This document shows positions 2,859 to 51,821 of a DNA stretch of 51,821 nucleotides, one piece after another. How positions within the stretch are numbered: position 1 is the stretch's first letter; each line of letters starts with the position of its first letter. Origin of the DNA: Shigella phage pSf-1; sequence record KC710998; one strand, given 5' to 3'. The position numbers and the translations under genes were made by a program. The notes under the pieces were generated by a model. The model saw only the letters and a list, made by a program, of their open reading frames with translations. It was not told the DNA's origin and ran no database searches.

Positions 2859-4541
2859 ATGATTCCAAACATTGAAAAGCAAATATCAGCACTTGGTGAA
2901 GCGGTAATTAAATCCATTCAGGAGCGATTCACTGTTGGCGATATTGTGCCTTACCCTTACCAGTGCGTTGCATACGCTGAGATCGCAAAGCGTATGAAAA
3001 ATTATGAGCATCCATTCTTTGTTAAAGCGTCCGTATCGGCTGGCAAAACATTGGTGTTTGCAATGGTTGCTCACCAGTGCCGGAAAATGGGCTTGAAAAT
3101 GATGGTCCTTGCTCGCCAGGCTGAGATTGTGGGTCAGGATTCTGAAGAGATAACAAATCTTGGTGTGCCGAACTCCATCTATTGTGCAGGACTGAAGACA
3201 AAAAGCGCATACTTTCCGATCGTTGTTGGTTCTGAGGGAACTGTAGTTAATGGACTGTTTAAAGCGCTTGGCGACTATGTTCCGCACGTTATCGGGATTG
3301 ACGAGTGTCACCAGGTGGATTGGGAAGACCTTGCCGACGCAATAGACAAAGACGAATCATTTTTGCAAATGACGACGAAGAAAGGCGAAAAAGTACCAAA
3401 TCCAGATTATGACATAACAAAGGGAAGCAGGAACAGAAATACAGAGTTCCTGATTGGTGAAGATGGCTTGCCAATGGAGGGAACAGGCCGCACACAATAC
3501 ACTGTCATTATCATGGAAATGATGCGACGTTGCAGGAAAGCATATGGCCATGAACTGCGCATATTTGGCATGACTGGATCGGAGTTTCGCGGCGTAGTCC
3601 CGATCCTGGTAGAAGACAAAAAACAAAAAGGATTCTGGCGTGAACAGGTTACTAATATTGACACCAACTACCTGATCAAATTCGGTTCTGTTGTGCCAAC
3701 AAATTTTGGCGACGTTGGCGATCTAGGGTATGACCTTTCAGAGTTTGAGGCATCCAGCGAGGATGGCGTTGCAGACTTTGACGCTAAAACGCTTCGTAGG
3801 ATGGAACAAAAAATTCATGAAGAAGCGACCATGACAAAGCGCATCATGGCAAAAGTTCACGAGATCTGTAAAAACCGCAACGGCGTACTTGTGACATGTG
3901 CAGGAGAAAGGCATTGCAAAGAGGCAGCGGCAGCGTTGCCACCTGGAACTACTTACAGGATCATTACTGGTAAGACTGGCGACAATCAGCGCAAGGAGTG
4001 GTTGAGGGAAGCATACGAAGGGAAGGTAAAATACATCTTCCAGGTTCAGGCGCTAACAACTGGCGTTAACGTTCCGTTTTGGGATACGTCGGTTATATTG
4101 CGTAAGATTGGATCTCTTACGTTGCTGATTCAGCTTTTAGGGCGCGGAATGCGACTACTTAAGAAGTGGCATAAGGAGCAAGGATTCCAGAAAGATGATC
4201 ATCTCGTCATGGATTTTTCAGGAACGATGGACGAGTTAGGGGAACTTTATTTTGATCCGATACTGGAACAGGCGCAACATCAGAAGCGATTCAGGAACGG
4301 TAAAGATCCGAAGCCTTGTCCTGTTTGCGGAACTCTTAATAGCTATTATGCTCGTCGTTGTATGCACGTAGACGAAAACGGCAACAGATGCGAGTGGTTC
4401 TTTAAATTCAGGACATGCGATGATCAGATTGACCCGCGCACTAAAAAGATTATTCATCGCGGTTGTGGAACGAAAAATGATATTGCGGCCAGGGTGTGCA
4501 GACATTGCGACATGTCATTGATTGACCTAACGAGAAGTTGA
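2859..4541 (+). CDS. SF2 (DEAD/DEAH-type) DNA helicase with C-terminal zinc ribbons
   Basis: Walker A VSAGKT, GIDECHQ (DExH box), C-terminal CPVCG...CRHC; start chosen at ATG 2859 downstream of promoter cassette (track ORF starts 2793). Confidence 0.7.
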   Translation: MIPNIEKQISALGEAVIKSIQERFTVGDIVPYPYQCVAYAEIAKRMKNYEHPFFVKASVSAGKTLVFAMVAHQCRKMGLKMMVLARQAEIVGQDSEEITNLGVPNSIYCAGLKTKSAYFPIVVGSEGTVVNGLFKALGDYVPHVIGIDECHQVDWEDLADAIDKDESFLQMTTKKGEKVPNPDYDITKGSRNRNTEFLIGEDGLPMEGTGRTQYTVIIMEMMRRCRKAYGHELRIFGMTGSEFRGVVPILVEDKKQKGFWREQVTNIDTNYLIKFGSVVPTNFGDVGDLGYDLSEFEASSEDGVADFDAKTLRRMEQKIHEEATMTKRIMAKVHEICKNRNGVLVTCAGERHCKEAAAALPPGTTYRIITGKTGDNQRKEWLREAYEGKVKYIFQVQALTTGVNVPFWDTSVILRKIGSLTLLIQLLGRGMRLLKKWHKEQGFQKDDHLVMDFSGTMDELGELYFDPILEQAQHQKRFRNGKDPKPCPVCGTLNSYYARRCMHVDENGNRCEWFFKFRTCDDQIDPRTKKIIHRGCGTKNDIAARVCRHCDMSLIDLTRS

Positions 4542-4903
4542 GCGGAAAGCACTACACAAAAAACGACTGGTTCAAGGTGCAATCTTTCTCGGTTGACATA
4601 ACGAAAAACCAGAAAGGGATAATATTTAATTATGAGCTTTCCGATGGCATGGACACTTTCAGGGCGAGAGAGATATTTTTCCCTGAATCTGAGAGCCAAA
4701 TTTGCCGCGCAAAATGGCGAAGCGTTGCTCTTAAGCACATACCAGATCGCCGCGTTGCTGGCATGGTGGCGAGCTATCGTAATGCACGAAAAATAATGCA
4801 ATATGTGAATCACATTATGCCGCCATCGCGTGTGACTCACCGCAAGACTAGCAAGGGTGAAGATAATTTGTACAAGAAGGACTTTAATTATGGCAATAAC
4901 TGA
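4538..4903 (+). CDS. hypothetical protein (TTG start overlapping helicase stop)
   Basis: ORF track; no recognisable motif; start uncertain. Confidence 0.3.
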   Translation: MSGKHYTKNDWFKVQSFSVDITKNQKGIIFNYELSDGMDTFRAREIFFPESESQICRAKWRSVALKHIPDRRVAGMVASYRNARKIMQYVNHIMPPSRVTHRKTSKGEDNLYKKDFNYGNN

Positions 4904-8879: not shown

Positions 8880-9296
8880 ATGCGAAAGTTATCACTAATC
8901 GCGATCGCTGTTATTTTGTCTGGATGTTCAAGCGTTACGCCACTGACCGGATTAATCGGTAGTAAGCCGGAAATCACCGCGCAGGCAGGAGCGGAGAACG
9001 TAAAGCAGACCGTAGGCCTGACAGCAAAACAGGACGCAAGCAACAAGCAGGATACAACCATTAAAGATTCGAAAGTTGACACGGTTGATACTTCCAGCAA
9101 AAAGGAGATCAAAACGTCAACCATTCAGGCAAACACCATCAAGGCTGATAAAATCCAGGTTGTGCAGGGTGAGCAAAGGAAGTGGTACGATCCTATAATC
9201 TATTGCGCTGCAATTTTCAGTGGTCTTTTGACTATGCTTTACTTTTCCTACCGCAAAGACAACAAAAAGGAGCTTAACGCCTCCTTTGTTTTATAG
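8880..9296 (+). CDS. unimolecular spanin (lipoprotein with C-terminal TMD)
   Basis: N-terminal lipobox LSGC and C-terminal transmembrane helix; position after endolysin. Confidence 0.6.
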   Translation: MRKLSLIAIAVILSGCSSVTPLTGLIGSKPEITAQAGAENVKQTVGLTAKQDASNKQDTTIKDSKVDTVDTSSKKEIKTSTIQANTIKADKIQVVQGEQRKWYDPIIYCAAIFSGLLTMLYFSYRKDNKKELNASFVL

Positions 9297-12904: not shown

Positions 12905-12949
12905 GATTATGCCAGGTTTTGCACCTGGCGTTTTAACAAAAAGTGCTAT
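12905..12949 (-). promoter_or_regulatory. conserved promoter cassette (minus strand)
   Basis: 44-nt core identical to the plus-strand cassette at 17701..17744 (includes hairpin GCCAGGTGCAAAACCTGGC). Confidence 0.55.
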
Positions 12950-13655
12950 TTTGCGTTTGCTTCAAAGACGGCGCGAGCAAAACCGCGCGGTGTGAGGGAG
13001 CGGATCATCTTTGTGCGAGATGATTTTCCGCCAGTTTTGGCCCAACCAGGATTATCCTTGTCATCCTCTTTAGGAAGGATTGTTGCGCGCGGAGGAATAA
13101 CAAATCCGTTTCCAGTCCAAAGGCATGTTTTCTTAAAGTACCGATCCCGCGCCGGAATAATATCAGGGAAGTCGGGATGCTTATCATCTTCCGGCAGATA
13201 GCAGCATAATCGCACGGATGGAACGTATAATCAGGCTTACGCCATAACGTTGACAGCTTGCCTACAGGATTTTCGATCATGTAAGGAACGCCGAAATAAT
13301 CAGCGATATGCGCCGCGATTCTGCAAGTGTCGGCGGCCTCATCCTGGAACGCTGGATTCTCAAGGCGTTTTTTGGTCCAATGGCGAGATCCGCTATTTGC
13401 AAGGTCAGTGCACGGCGGAAATGCCATAATGAAATCAGGCTTGCCCCAATTTTCAAGTTTTGCGGTATATTTGAATAGCTCATCAATCCACACATTAACG
13501 TAAAAAATATTATCATGGATTATGCGCACTGATTGGTAGTCGCCATGATCTGCATCATCGTAATTAAAGCAAATGCATTTATATCCAGCATCAGCCCAAT
13601 CTTTAACGGCTTTACCAGATCCATCAAACAAAGAGAATATTAAACCTTTATACAT
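12946..13655 (-). CDS. C5-cytosine DNA methyltransferase-like protein, apparently frameshifted
   Basis: motif I LFDGSG, motif IV FPPCTDLANSG (PC dipeptide), motif VI ENPVG; coding continues in another frame (track ORFs 13005..13655 and 12946..13215). Confidence 0.45.
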
Positions 13656-16974: not shown

Positions 16975-17292
16975 ATGAGTGAGTCTGTGTTTACAAATGA
17001 GCTTCGCAAGGTTGCAATTGCTCTAGCCACTGGAGTACATGAATCTATCCAGATACCTGAAAGATGGGTAAGGCAGCACCTGGAGGGCAAGAAGTCAGCC
17101 AGCAACGCCGGATCATATCTGCGTCAGATTATGGGGCGCGTTCCAGAAGTGGCGGAGAAGGGGCGAGTTTCAGTATCAAAGAAACCTTACGGCCCTGATA
17201 GCGAATACTTCGGCGAAAATTACTTTGATGTGTCGATTGTTAATGCGCCGAATCGCAGGGTTTACAACAAGGCCGCGCTTGAGAAGCTGTAG
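16975..17292 (+). CDS. hypothetical protein (first gene of plus-strand early cluster)
   Basis: ATG with GAGGGGGGA RBS; a second frame stays open past the stop (possible indel). Confidence 0.45.
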   Translation: MSESVFTNELRKVAIALATGVHESIQIPERWVRQHLEGKKSASNAGSYLRQIMGRVPEVAEKGRVSVSKKPYGPDSEYFGENYFDVSIVNAPNRRVYNKAALEKL

Positions 17293-24980: not shown

Positions 24981-25002
24981 CCCGCCAAATGGCGGGTTTT
25001 TT
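24981..25002 (+). terminator. rho-independent terminator followed by TATAAT promoter-like element
   Basis: CCCGCC-aaat-GGCGGG + T6; TATAAT at about 25020. Confidence 0.55.
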
Positions 25003-25053
25003 ATTGCCTGCAATTTGTCTATAATGAGGCTTTGTTATAAAGGAGGGCGCATT

Positions 25054-25574
25054 ATGGCTAAAAACGTTGAGCCAGCAGTAAAGGCTTGCAATTTTAAAAA
25101 ACTATATAATAAGCAATATGGCGATATAGCAAAAATGACAAAGGCGCACAAGTACACGCCGGAACAGGTATTTGATCTGGCTGTTCGTTACTTTACGTGG
25201 GCTGAGGAAAACCATATACAGGCTGCGGAAACGGCATCCTTTCAGGGTGACGTATACGAAAGCAAGATTCACAAGCCGCGCGTGTTCACCTTAAACGGAT
25301 TCCGATTATTCGCTGGCCTTTCTGCCTCCGTACTTGAAAAATGGCGACGCGAGCAGGATTTAGCGATGTTATGGACTTTATCGACGGCGTTGTTTACGAG
25401 CAAAAATTCCAGCTTGCCGCAAACAATATTGTTAACGCCGGATTCATTGGTAAGGAGATCGGCATTGAAAAGCCAGCCACCGTTACCATTGAGAATAACA
25501 CAAGCGCCAGCGTTGACGCTGTAACGGCGGAGGAAGTCAAAGAGGCGGTAATTGACATTCTGGAGAAGATATAA
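25054..25574 (+). CDS. terminase small subunit (apparent frameshift near 25357)
   Basis: N-terminal part ...KPRVFTLNGFRLFAGLSASVLEKWRREQ in one frame, C-terminal part GFSDVMDFIDGVVYEQKFQLAANNIVNAGFIGKEIGIEKP in another (track ORFs 24883..25524 and 25341..25574); AAGGAGGG RBS. Confidence 0.55.
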
Positions 25575-27142
25575 TGCTGATTTGGGAAGACTTAACAGCG
25601 GCGCAAAAGCGCGCCGTTAAGGAAATGAGCGAATATTCATTCGAAAAGATGATCCGCATTTGGTTTCAACTTCTCCAGGGGCAAAGGTTCTTGGGAAACT
25701 GGCATTTCAGTTACCTATGCAGCGAAGTTGAAAAAATCATCAAAGGCGAGTCACAGAATGTAATTTTCAACATAACGCCAGGCAGTGGTAAAACAGAGAT
25801 ATTCTCGATCCACATGTCACCTTATGCGTCATTGAAAAGTAAGAAGGTGCGAAATCTTAATCTTTCGTTTAGTGATGGCCTTGTCCAGCAGAATAGCAAC
25901 CGCATCAAAGAGATTATTGGTTCTCCAGAATGGCAGGAGCTATGGCCTGGAAAGCTGGCAAAGGCGAGCGCAAAGGATTTGATTGTAACAGATGGCGGCA
26001 AGGTTAAATTACAAGTCAACTCGCGTTCTATTGGTGGTCAGGTTACTGGTCTGCGTGGCGGATACATGGACGATGGATTTACTGGTATGCTGGTTCTTGA
26101 TGATCCAGACAAACCGGATGACATGCTTTCTAAGGTGAAGCGCGAAGCCGGACACATGCGCCTAAAGAACACGGTGCGATCGCGTCGAATGAAAGACACT
26201 ACGCCAATTGTGATGGTTCAGCAACGTCTACACGTCAATGATTCAACGTGGTTCATGACAAACGGCGGTATGGGCGGCATCCAGTTTAAGGTGGTAAGTA
26301 TTCCGGCGCTCGTTACTAAGGAATACCGCGAAACGCTTCCTGATTGGTTAAAGCCTGAGTTTGATCGCGATGTTTTGTCCAGTAAGCCAGTGATGATTGA
26401 TGGTGTTGCTCATTATTCGTTCTGGCCTGCTAAGGAAAGCGCGGAGGAATTACTTGCACTTCGAAATGCTGATCCGTACACGTTCGCCAGTCAGTATCAG
26501 CAACAGCCTGTTGCGCTTGGTGGTAACGTGTTTAAAACAGAGTGGTTCCAGTATTACGGCAGCAGCGAGAAATGCACGCTACCAAAACCGGATCGCTTTG
26601 AATATACATTTATCACGGTTGATACCGCGCAGAAAACAGGTGAGCTTAACGACTACTCCGTGATCTGTTATTGGGGGATGTATAAAGATCGTGTCTACTT
26701 CATTGATGGCGTTCGCGGAAAATGGGAAGCACCGGACCTTGAGACGAATTTTGTTGCATTCGTTAATCAGTGCTGGAAGCGCAATAAAGAATGCGGAACG
26801 TTGCGAAGGATTCATGTTGAAGATAAATCATCTGGCACTGGCTTGATTCAGAGTGCAGCGAAAAAAATCATGATCAAGATCAATCCCGTTCAGCGCGATA
26901 AAGACAAGGTTACGCGAGCAATGGACGCAGCGCCAGTAATGCGCGCCGGACGCGTAGCACTTCCAGAATCCCATCCTATGCTGGCTGAGATACTAGCTGA
27001 AGTTGCGGCGTTTACATTCGATGATAGCCATCCTCATGATGATATTGTTGATAACATCATTGATGCGGTTAACATTGAAATGAACATGGCAGATGATCCG
27101 GTTGGAAGAATGAAAAAATTGGCAGGTTTGCGGAACAAATAG
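25574..27142 (+). CDS. terminase large subunit
   Basis: Walker A ITPGSGKTE, 522 aa, follows TerS. Confidence 0.7.
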   Translation: MLIWEDLTAAQKRAVKEMSEYSFEKMIRIWFQLLQGQRFLGNWHFSYLCSEVEKIIKGESQNVIFNITPGSGKTEIFSIHMSPYASLKSKKVRNLNLSFSDGLVQQNSNRIKEIIGSPEWQELWPGKLAKASAKDLIVTDGGKVKLQVNSRSIGGQVTGLRGGYMDDGFTGMLVLDDPDKPDDMLSKVKREAGHMRLKNTVRSRRMKDTTPIVMVQQRLHVNDSTWFMTNGGMGGIQFKVVSIPALVTKEYRETLPDWLKPEFDRDVLSSKPVMIDGVAHYSFWPAKESAEELLALRNADPYTFASQYQQQPVALGGNVFKTEWFQYYGSSEKCTLPKPDRFEYTFITVDTAQKTGELNDYSVICYWGMYKDRVYFIDGVRGKWEAPDLETNFVAFVNQCWKRNKECGTLRRIHVEDKSSGTGLIQSAAKKIMIKINPVQRDKDKVTRAMDAAPVMRAGRVALPESHPMLAEILAEVAAFTFDDSHPHDDIVDNIIDAVNIEMNMADDPVGRMKKLAGLRNK

Positions 27143-27210: not shown

Positions 27211-28490
27211 ATGAGTAAATCACGAATCGTTAAGGCTGATGGCTATAACGAGATCTTTAAAGGCGAGAATTGCAAATCGCGAGTAGAGCAACCATTCTAC
27301 ATGCAATCAATGCCATACAAGACACTTGCTGACTTTTACGAAAAAGACGGCCTGGCAAAAAGGGTTATTGACGTAGTACCAGAGGAAATGGTTTCCCCTG
27401 GCTTCACGGTTGACGGCGTGGCAGACGAGGCAGCATTCCGTTCTTTGTGGGATGAGAAGCGATTGAATGCAAAAATTATTGATGCGCTTTGCTGGTCGCG
27501 TTTGTTTGGTGGATCTGCAATCATTGCTCTTGTTCAGGATGGGCGAGCGCTCAAATCACCTGTAAAGCCTGGTGCCATGTTGGAGGATGTGCGAGTTTAC
27601 GATCGCTATCAGATTCGCGTTGAAGCGCGCGAAACTAATCCACGCAAGGTTCGCTATGGTGAGCCAGTGCTTTACACTGTAACGCCAGGCGGAGACTTGC
27701 CGGAATACCAGGTACACTACACGCGAGTTTGCATTATCGACGGTGAGCGGATACCTAACGCAAAGCGACGCAGCAATGATGGCTGGGGTGAGTCAGTTCT
27801 TAACAAGCGACTTGTTGAGGCTATTGTTGATTATAACTATTGTGAAACATTGGCAACGCAATTATTGCGGCGGAAGCAACAGGCGGTATGGAAGGCTAAA
27901 GGACTCGCTGACTTGTGCGATGATGAAGAAGGTGTTAGCGCGGCACGTCTGAGGCTTGCGCAGGTTGACGATGAGGCGGCGTAGGCAGGGCCATTGGTAT
28001 TGATGCTGAGGATGAGGAATATGATGTTCTTAACTCTGACATTAGCGGCGTTGATTCTTTTCTGGAAAAGAAAATGGATCGCATCGTTTCCCTTTCAGGT
28101 ATTCATGAAATCATCCTGAAAAATAAAAACGTTGGCGGAGTTAGCGCAAGCCAAAACACGGCGCTTGAAACATTCTATAAGCTGATTGAACGAAAACGCG
28201 TTGAGGATTACAAGCCTATTCTTGAATTTCTATTGCCGTTCATCATTAGTGAGCAGGAGTGGAGTATTGAGTTTTCACCTTTGAGCGTACCTAGCGATAA
28301 AGATCAGGCTGAAATTCTGAATAAGAATATCGACTCAATCAGCAAGGCTATTGATGGTCAGTTCCTTGATGTTGAAGAAGCGCGCGACACGTTGCGAGCA
28401 ATCGCCCCAAGCGTTAAACTAAAGGACACTAATAAAATCAAGCTGCCGGAGCCAACTGAGCCGGAGCCAGGCACGCAGGGGAATGAGTAA
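27211..28490 (+). CDS. portal protein (apparent frameshift near 27970-27985)
   Basis: two adjacent track ORFs (27211..27984, 28074..28490); second frame is open back to about 27975, so one indel joins them; position between TerL and head morphogenesis gene. Confidence 0.5.
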
Positions 28491-30924: not shown

Positions 30925-30984
30925 TATATTTGGGGTTATCATGAGTGATTATTCAGTCATTGTTGGCGCTGAGTCGCAGGGTGC

Positions 30985-35853: not shown

Positions 35854-38526
35854 ATGTCAGAACAATACGCAGGCTTGACGCTTGGGGTTGACGTTTCTCA
35901 ACTCAACAATGCTGTAAAGTCTTTGCAGCAATTCAAGAAGGCAAACGACGACGCAAAGGGAAGCGTTGAGAGTTTTGTTGATTCAGAGGTTGTTGCAAGA
36001 CAAAGAGCCAAACAACTGGCTGAGGAATTGGCAAAGCAGAAGCAAGAATTTAAAGCAATTCAGTCGGCAATAGATCCGACAGCAAGCAAAATGGATAAGT
36101 TGCGCCAGGCGGCAACACAGCTTGATGCGCTTTGGAAAAAAGGAATTGTGCCGGATGATACATTCTTTGAGTTAGGATCAATTCTTGAGACGCAGCAAAA
36201 CAAACTGATCGCAACTAAAAAGGCGCTAACTGAAGAAGGCCGCGCGGCGCTTGAGGAAGCAAAAAACAAGGCAAGGGCAGAGGCTGAGGCAAGAAAGTTT
36301 ATTGCGGCATTGCAGGCGCAAGCTGACGCAGCGGAAAAAACAAAATCAGAGCTTGTCGAAATGAGAGCCGCACAACTTGGAGTTAGTGCAGAGGCAGCGC
36401 CATTTATTGCAAAAATGAAGGAGCAGGAAAAACAAGCCTCAAAACTTGGCGTTTCTATGGGGCAGTACAAGCAAGCAATGGCGCAATTGCCAATGCAGAT
36501 CACTGACGTTGTTACTTCTCTTGCTTCAGGTATGCCAGTATGGATGATCGCAATCCAGCAGGGTGGGCAAATCAAGGACTCATTCGGCGGTGTTGCTAAT
36601 ACGTTTAAAGCGCTAATGACATTTGTCACGCCTTTAAGTGTAGGAATGACGGCGCTGACTGGTGCTCTTGGTTATGCTGCATATAATGCATACAAAGCAA
36701 ATGCACAATTGAAGGAGATCACAAAAACCGTTCAGGAGGCAACAGGTCTTTCCGGTGAGTTTGCAGAGCGGATCGCAACTGGAATCCAAGCGCTATCTGA
36801 CAAGACAGGAGAGAGCGCCGACAATCTGGCAAAGGCATACATAAGCACTAAGGATGGAGCAACCGAGGCCATACAAAAACTCGTCGATGTTGGATTTACC
36901 TATGACGAAGCAAAGGCAAAAGTAAACGAATACAAAAACGCATCAAGTTTTGTAAGTCTTAACAATGAAATTGCTGATCACAAAAACAAGGTTCTTGAGC
37001 TTGGCGATTCATGGTATGCGGTCTTAAAAGCAAAACGTGATTATGCTTCACCGTCCGGCGGGCTGTTGGGGAAAGAGCTTGGTTATGTGAATCCAATGCT
37101 GCAATTTGCGAAGAACACCTATGAGGATATAGGAAAGATTGTAAAAGATGCGAATAAGGATATGGCGGAACGAGCAGCACGCATCGACAGAGAAAACCTT
37201 TCCTTAAACAGAGTTCGAGCGGCGCAAGAGGCTTTAAACAAAGCCATAGAGGATCAGAAGAACGTAGCAAGGACAGCAGACGAAGAGTTGAAAAAGCGCG
37301 CGGCTGAGAACGTGGAGTTCAGGCGAAAAGAGCTTGAAGAGGCGAAGAAGGCGCAGCAGCAAAAGGAAAAAGTTGGTGGAGTTGTAAAAGCACCAACAGA
37401 GCAGCTTGATAAGGAGCTATATGTTCTCAAGGCGCAACTTGAAACGCTGAAAGAGCACCGAACTGTAAATGATGTTATTTCACGCCAGAGGCAATCTTTG
37501 TGGAGCATTGAAAAGCAGATCCAGATCCTGGAGGAAGCGCAAAGCAAACGCAAGCTGACAAAGGCTGAACAGGCGTTACTAAACGAGCAAAAAGCAGTTA
37601 TTGCTATGGCAAAAGAAAAGGCCGAGATAGGCGATCAGATTGTTTTGCAACAAAGAAAGAACAAGCAATACCAGGAAGGGCTTAAATTCATTCAGCAAAC
37701 ATCAGATGCTATTGACGCTATGAACTTGCGACAGTCTGGAGCTACAGATCTGCAAATCCAGCGAGAGCTTGAGTTGAAGAAGTTGCGAACTGATTATGTT
37801 GCTGGCGGCGGTAGTATCGACGATGAAATTTATCAGCAGATGGAAGCAAAGCTGAAAGAGTATTACGCAACTGAGGATCAACTTAGAAATAACTGGATTG
37901 CAGGAGCAAAAAACGCATGGGAGGTTTACGGACAAGATGCAATGGATATGTACGGAAACGTGCAAGATATTGCAAGCGAGGCGCTCAACGGTCTAACCAA
38001 CCAAATGGCTACATTCCTTGCAACAGGCAAGGCAAACTTTAAGAGCTTCGCAACGTCAATCATCCAAATGATTATCCAGATGATCACGAAGATGGTTATC
38101 TTTAATGCCATATCTGGTGCGATTGGAGGTGACACTTGGACGATTGGAAGCCTTCTTAAAAATGTTGGATTTGCAACTGGTGGATACACTGGCGACGGCG
38201 GGAAGTATGAGCCAGCAGGTGTTGTTCATAAAGGCGAGTTTGTCATGACGAAGGAGGCCACGAAGCGGATCGGAGTTGGAAACCTTTACAAAATGATGCG
38301 CGGTTATGCAAATGGCGGCGTTGTTGGCGGCACTTCATACACTGGCGGCGGCGTTTCATCAGGAGCAACAAACCTTAATATTGGTGGGATTAGCGTTGAT
38401 ATTAACAACGGAAACGATCCGAAGGGGTTAGAGACTGGCGTAAAAATGATTTTCACTGATATGATTAAGCGTTCCTGTACGCAGGGTGGGGAAGTTTACG
38501 AATTTGTTATGTCTAAGCGGGGGTGA
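35854..38526 (+). CDS. tape measure protein
   Basis: 890 aa, Ala/Lys/Glu-rich predicted coiled coil, Gly-rich C-terminal region, position after G/T. Confidence 0.75.
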
Positions 38527-50898: not shown

Positions 50899-51821
50899 TT
50901 ATTTATTGAGCAGTGCAGCAACAGCCGCCTTTAATTCGTCTATCTCCTTTTGCTGGTTTTCGATCATTCCTCCCATGTAAACCATAGCGCAAGCCATATC
51001 AGCCATGATCACGTTGTTGTCAAGAGCAAGCGTATCATCTGCTTTGTCAACCACAATTTGACGATCTACATATTCTTCACCTTCATCATTAACGCCTATA
51101 ACATCTGCAAAAATGTCCCCGCCAGGTATTAGCTTTACATATTCAGGATCTATTTTTAGCAGATCCTGAGCTATCATCCCAAATCGCTGAATGTTGCTTC
51201 CATTGTATTTAAACATTGTCGGAAGCCACTGCATAACGCGATCATAGCTTTCCTTTCCATCTGTATAAATTATATCGTGCTTCAAATCTCTGTCAGAGTT
51301 AGCGGCCTTTTGAAAAATGAAATTTCCACTTGATGACCATGTGGTTATATCGTTTGAGGCTGGCTGAAACTGGAAGTTACAGAAAAAATTACCATCACCA
51401 CGAAGTCTTAATGAGCAAAAAGGCCAAGCATTATTTCCCTGTGGGATAAGACCCCAAGTTGCACGAATTGGATAACCACCAGTTGATTGTGTACCCCATG
51501 AAAGGCCAGGCGCCCATCCACCGTCATTGTTAGGGATAATCTCGCCCCAAACAAGAGCATTACCCCAATAGTTAGGATCATCCATCCATTTGTTGGGTTT
51601 TGCCAGTGTATTGAGCAGAATGCGTTCTGCCGTCAGGGTAAAACTTGTGCATATAGCTTTGCACACCATGTTTATACAGTTCAATCCCAAACGACTCAAT
51701 TTGTGCAGCACCGCCTCTGATCAAACCAGCGATAGCGTAATCGCTATACCAGTTGTAACGACTTACACCAGTCCATGAGTTCATTGGTGGATTCATGATT
51801 GAATATAGTTGTGACGGATTG
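50899..51821 (-). CDS. tail fiber protein, C-terminal part with S74-type intramolecular chaperone domain (frame disrupted near 51580-51715)
   Basis: SDRDLKHDIIYTDG... autoproteolytic chaperone-like motif in ORF 50899..51711; upstream ORF 51578..51796 is in frame with the minus-strand ORF at 1..1208 if window ends are joined. Confidence 0.5.

Follow-up and report, generated by a model that had tools for sequence, protein, structure and literature searches.

The window analyzed here is the complete 51,821-bp genome record of Shigella phage pSf-1 (KC710998 / NC_021331; Jun et al. 2013, PMC4070988; PMC6340994). In this record, the gene for the small terminase subunit (TerS) lies directly upstream of the gene for the large subunit (TerL), and both are on the plus strand. 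TerS begins with an ATG at 25054, and 7 nt before it we read a Shine-Dalgarno sequence, AGGAGG (25041..25046, plus strand). One frame (frame A) runs from this ATG to a stop codon at 25522-25524 and encodes 156 aa. A second frame, shifted by –1 (frame B), is open from 25338, immediately after a TGA at 25335-25337, and ends in a TAA at 25572-25574. The initial annotation had described a TerS gene at 25054-25574 that is split by a one-base shift, and we found the same split in the open reading frames, by tblastn and in Pfam searches.

When we compared the intact TerS of phage vojen to pSf-1 by tblastn, residues 1-100 matched in frame 1 (25054-25353) at 100% identity and residues 96-173 matched in frame 3 (25338-25571). 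Frame A is correct through codon 100 (25353); beyond it, the –1 frame carries the gene on to the TAA at 25572-25574. Codons 1-100 in frame A (25054..25353, plus strand), which are the intact 5' portion, are 100% identical at the amino acid level to residues 1-100 of vojen TerS. The true 3' part, which holds part of codon 101 through codon 173 and the stop codon in frame B (25355..25574, plus strand), agrees with the proteins of Henu8 and EcoP_06 at 73/73 residues. Because the sequence downstream of the lesion is identical to these two proteins, the match in frame B is not due to chance. What the list of open reading frames gives for frame A beyond codon 100 (25354..25524, plus strand) is an out-of-frame tail of 56 aa, ...QDLAMLWTLSTALF...ALTL*, which forms the end of the annotated 156-aa product; the peptide NSSLPQTILLTPDSLVR is an example from this tail. 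The tail is not real protein sequence.

The frame-B TAA overlaps the ATG of TerL at 25574 (TAATG), and translation of TerL is coupled to the end of TerS in frame B. TerL itself is intact (25574..27142, plus strand; 522 aa). It is 99.8% identical to vojen TerL and matches Pfam Terminase_6C (E 1.3e-11), and its exact protein belongs to a 256-member cluster.

Position of the missing base and identity of the repaired TerS

We searched 50,697 phage records by megablast with positions 25000-25620 (621 bases) as the query and found 64 related records, 63 of which are 95-99% identical to pSf-1. In 30 of the 30 that were listed among these 64 records, the 621-base pSf-1 query is spanned by 622 bases. 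When we aligned the DNA to seven relatives (phiE31-2, vojen, egaa, Henu8, SFP17, A15a and EcoP_06), together with pairwise alignments, we found a single gap, at GAG-C[C]-AGG, where pSf-1 has one C (25354..25354, plus strand) and all seven relatives have CC; this is a one-base deletion that shifts the frame by –1. At the lesion, the relatives read GAGCCAGGATTC and pSf-1 reads GAG-CAGGATTT. In all seven aligned relatives the codons are GAG CCA GGA TTC AGC, which encode E-P-G-F-S.

The lost C sits in a two-base CC within CCAGG, 5-7 bases upstream of a T-run. The initial annotation had placed the missing base in this run, as one T at about 25357-25362; however, the alignment gap falls at the CC of GAGCCAGG and not in the T-run, and the T-run itself (25359-25361) differs from the relatives only by a TTC to TTT change that is synonymous in frame B. 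Repair by an extra T at 25359-25361 was rejected: it restores the open reading frame but produces Q-D where all relatives have P-G. Alignment to the TerS of related phages, which had been proposed as a check, thus supports the loss of one base but moves it from the T-run to the CC at 25354, and the term 'homopolymer' does not fit a lost base that is a C of a two-base CC.

All seven relatives annotate or encode 173 aa from the same ATG, except that the annotated start in Henu8 is 30 nt upstream. Most differences from the relatives are synonymous when read in frame B; compared to Henu8, there are five synonymous and no non-synonymous differences after the lesion. Frame B is perfectly preserved downstream of the lesion, which fits an artefact or a very recent mutation. 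The nearest complete relatives of pSf-1 are only about 96-97% identical. We found no exact match in IMG/VR to a 28-base stretch across the deletion, either in the TTT version or in the relatives' TTC version. A search for the TTT haplotype of pSf-1 itself likewise gave no match, so this collection offered no near-identical independent genome for comparison.

With the C restored, TerS is 173 aa long and has exactly the sequence of TerS from Fulano1 and grams (100% identity). The sequence around 25354 that is predicted if the C is restored is GAGCCAGGATTT, and the tryptic junction peptide of the intact protein is EPGFSDVMDFIDGVVYEQK. The exact repaired protein is carried by 144 contigs and a one-residue variant by 132. 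The frameshifted 156-aa product, which is deposited as 'terminase small subunit [Shigella phage pSf-1]' (YP_008059782.1 / AGI61443.1), forms a one-member cluster on one contig when ~15 billion proteins are clustered at 90% identity. In Pfam searches, repaired TerS matches PF16677 (GP3_package) with 40.8 bits (E 2.7e-10; cut-off 29.4), while the deposited frame-A product reaches 22.6 bits, under the 29.4 cut-off, and frame B alone has no match. P22 gp3 (3P9A chain A) aligns to repaired TerS from query residues 35-144 to chain residues 24-133 (E 4.7e-15). This alignment is gapless across residues 35-144, so the lesion lies mid-way in one continuous region of homology. By homology, the pSf-1 TerS is an ordinary P22-gp3-like small terminase, and it is predicted to form a ring oligomer, bind the packaging site and stimulate TerL.

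Across Drexlerviridae and beyond, at least 80% of TerS is encoded at one place in 822 of 979 records, and in nearly all of 60 sampled rows from these 979 records TerS is in one piece. In the older record of Escherichia phage Jk06 (NC_007291.1, 21323-21809), the small terminase is matched in two pieces, possibly because of a comparable frameshift. Some 21 records labelled 'Campylobacter phage' (MG0656xx; UNVERIFIED and unannotated) are 97% identical to this E. coli/Shigella Hanrivervirus in the terminase region, which suggests mislabelled hosts or contaminating phages in those preparations.

Other one-base deletions in the record and their sequence context

We surveyed the pSf-1 genome for frame switches by tblastn with the 77 annotated vojen proteins, where a switch was defined as adjacent high-identity segments in different frames. 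Six of 66 pSf-1 genes show such a switch, compared to 0 of 63 in a control in which the vojen proteins were searched against the Henu8 genome. The pSf-1 record carries at least eight private one-base deletions of G or C, including the one in TerS; six cause frame switches in the middle of genes and two lie at gene ends. At all of the deletion sites where both vojen and Henu8 could be matched, the two agree against pSf-1; at 17287 there is a match to vojen only.

The TerS switch relative to vojen falls at 25353/25354 (plus strand). In the portal gene (27211-28490), a private deletion changes GGG to GG at about 27977, and the portal's only Pfam domain, Phage_portal_3, is divided between two open reading frames, one matching profile positions 3-215 and the other 237-356. 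The first 257 aa of the deposited portal are annotated as 'virion structural protein', and the UniRef name for this piece is 'Anti-CBASS protein Acb1-like N-terminal domain-containing protein'. In the DNA helicase gene (2859-4900; 681 aa in vojen), a private deletion changes CCC to CC at about 4526 and the frame switches after residue 556. In a methylase-like gene on the minus strand (12949-13655), the frame switches at residue 152/153 and a C is lost from GCCAG compared to Henu8, at about 13200-13202; the vojen annotation of this gene is 'site specific DNA methylase' and that of Henu8 is 'DNA-cytosine methylase', and a Pfam search with the vojen protein gave no match. Two small hypothetical genes are split by private one-base G/C deletions at 17287 and 12431. 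The two deletions at gene ends are at 30978, 12 codons into a gene and inside CCAGG, and at 9272, in the penultimate codon of an Rz-like gene, where the base is also lost from a GGAGGC/GCCTCC terminator stem.

Each of the eight deletions shortens a 2-3-base run of G/C by one G or C (P about 3e-4 in view of the run frequencies), and A/T runs outnumber G/C runs in these genomes. In seven of the eight, GCC has lost a C, or GGC on the opposite strand a G. Three of the eight, the one in TerS among them, are inside CCWGG (P about 1e-4), a motif that covers about 1.2% of the genome. When we counted indels at aligned CCWGG sites, we found five at 109 sites and five at 89 sites between pSf-1 and either relative (OR 4.0 and 9.2; p 0.01 and 0.0003), compared to none at 89 and 94 sites between the two relatives. 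GATC sites show no indel effect. CCWGG is itself abundant: pSf-1 has 120 sites, where 48.8 +/- 6.8 are expected from dinucleotide-preserving shuffles (120 was reached in 0 of 100 shuffles), and the relatives have 115-123. That independent genes share the same local context at their lesions argues for systematic miscalling rather than independent mutations.

Nanopore miscalling at Dcm-methylated CCWGG was considered as a source, since the C lost from TerS lies in CCAGG, but was not adopted; the enrichment at CCWGG is real, but publication of the genome dates from 2013 and there is no such effect at GATC sites. For a later phage, pSs-1, the same laboratory combined Sanger and Ion PGM sequencing (PMC4789750), which is at most suggestive of the platform used for pSf-1.

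Two further features of the record were observed. In an intergenic region, a deletion at 12917 and an insertion at 12930 are 13 bases apart and each adjoins CCWGG (CCAGG[C] is lost and CCTGGC[G] is gained); vojen and Henu8 agree against pSf-1 at both. A tail-fibre gene on the minus strand, whose homologue is at vojen 35855-37870 (about 63% identity), is found at 261-1208 and at 50902-51549 and appears to cross both ends of the record, so that the record would start inside a gene. We found no terminal repeat of 20-100 bases in the pSf-1 genome.

Origin of the split TerS gene

pSf-1 is virulent (lytic): it forms clear plaques, its latent period lasts about 10 min and its burst size is about 87 PFU per cell (PMC6340994; PMC4789750). 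Since pSf-1 propagates well, it needs working packaging genes. The initial annotation had argued that a viable phage would hardly carry a true break in so essential a gene, and a truly broken TerS together with a truly broken portal cannot be reconciled with viable lytic growth, which supports an error in the sequence. The TerS lesion occurs in a single record whereas its repaired form is widespread, and similar lesions affect other genes of this record but are absent between vojen and Henu8. The initial annotation had left the choice between a sequencing error and an inactivating mutation; the unique lesion, the common repaired protein and seven other deletions, including that in the portal, strongly favor the first. 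We are thus highly confident that the split in pSf-1 TerS reflects the omission of one C from the deposited sequence and is not biological. As a counterpoint, a two-base CC is not a classic site of long-homopolymer error.

If the C was omitted, the true sequence in pSf-1 (Hanrivervirus, Drexlerviridae) would be GAG CCA GGA TTT AGC, encoding E-P-G-F-S as in the relatives. We infer that the C at 25354 was dropped by a base-calling or assembly error, as one of at least eight context-dependent G/C omissions, and that pSf-1 itself most likely produces TerS as one intact protein.

It is very unlikely, in our assessment, that the deletion is real and inactivating, whether the sequenced stock carried the TerS mutation or a defective subpopulation prevailed in the assembly. 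The sequence as given does carry the deletion, spontaneous one-base deletions do occur, and frame B shows no decay, as would be expected of a very recent mutation. However, TerS and portal are essential for particle production and yet the burst is normal. Moreover, all eight independent deletions, which share the GCC/GGC context and six of which are mid-gene, would need to be real, and none of them is in any other record that we compared.

More improbable still is that the deletion is real and tolerated, so that low-level –1 slippage gives full-length TerS or the two halves are made as separate polypeptides. Candidates for slippage are tRNA-Lys on the A5 run at 25337-25341 and tRNA-Leu at T-TTA (25359-25362), and a separate half could start from the ATG at 25341. 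Frame B is open from 25338, such that slippage at any point in 25338-25360 would yield a protein close to normal, and the A5 run and the in-frame ATG are both present in the overlap. Other phage genes, among them those for tail assembly chaperones, are known to use programmed frameshifts. However, the codons at 25336-25365 (GAA AAA TGG CGA CGC GAG CAG GAT TTA GCG) contain no in-register X XXY YYZ heptamer. The RNA at 25330-25450 is no more stable than shuffled sequence: its minimum free energy is –27.6, the shuffles average –27.3 (z = –0.08), and 89 of the 200 shuffles are at least as stable. The ATG at 25341 has no Shine-Dalgarno sequence. The two-frame layout is present in none of the seven aligned relatives, the 30 records listed among the 64 all have the extra base, and the frameshifted product is a singleton. 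The lesion also lies inside the continuous homology to P22 gp3, and tolerance of a split TerS would leave the frameshifts in the portal, helicase and other genes unexplained. Programmed –1 frameshifting at TerS was rejected, as there is no heptamer, no stimulatory structure and no conservation. We give very little credence to the remaining form of this explanation, in which the single C is genuine and sufficient functional TerS nevertheless arises in pSf-1 by unprogrammed low-level –1 slippage within 25337-25362 or from split halves; if true, it would mean that a P22-gp3-like TerS tolerates a split in the middle of its conserved region.

Implications for the record and comparison with known systems

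The biological weight of a one-base omission in TerS is small, as the gene is an ordinary small terminase. The record is of wider concern: NC_021331 is the RefSeq genome of the founding member of Hanrivervirus, and at least eight one-base errors truncate or mislabel its proteins. The faulty entries spread to protein databases, to pangenome and core-gene counts and to automated screens for 'pseudogenes' or 'recoding'. The finding alerts curators to a widely used reference genome whose truncated products already bear misleading names in protein databases. The pSf-1 record should be resequenced or corrected.

In the other Hanriverviruses (Escherichia phages grams, Fulano1, Henu8 and vojen), the 173-aa TerS is encoded by the same gene in the same position adjacent to TerL and with the same TAATG overlap. 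These genes have 97-98% nucleotide identity to pSf-1 TerS; the difference is that pSf-1 lacks one C at 25354. P22 gp3 (PF16677) is homologous to pSf-1 TerS but distant, with about 30% identity to P22-like phages, and the pSf-1 protein comes from a T1-like siphovirus whereas the P22-like phages are podoviruses. The G/GT tail assembly chaperone of lambda likewise has two overlapping frames that are joined by a –1 shift into one protein. In contrast to lambda G/GT, where the shift makes a minor second product, a shift in pSf-1 would make the sole functional product.
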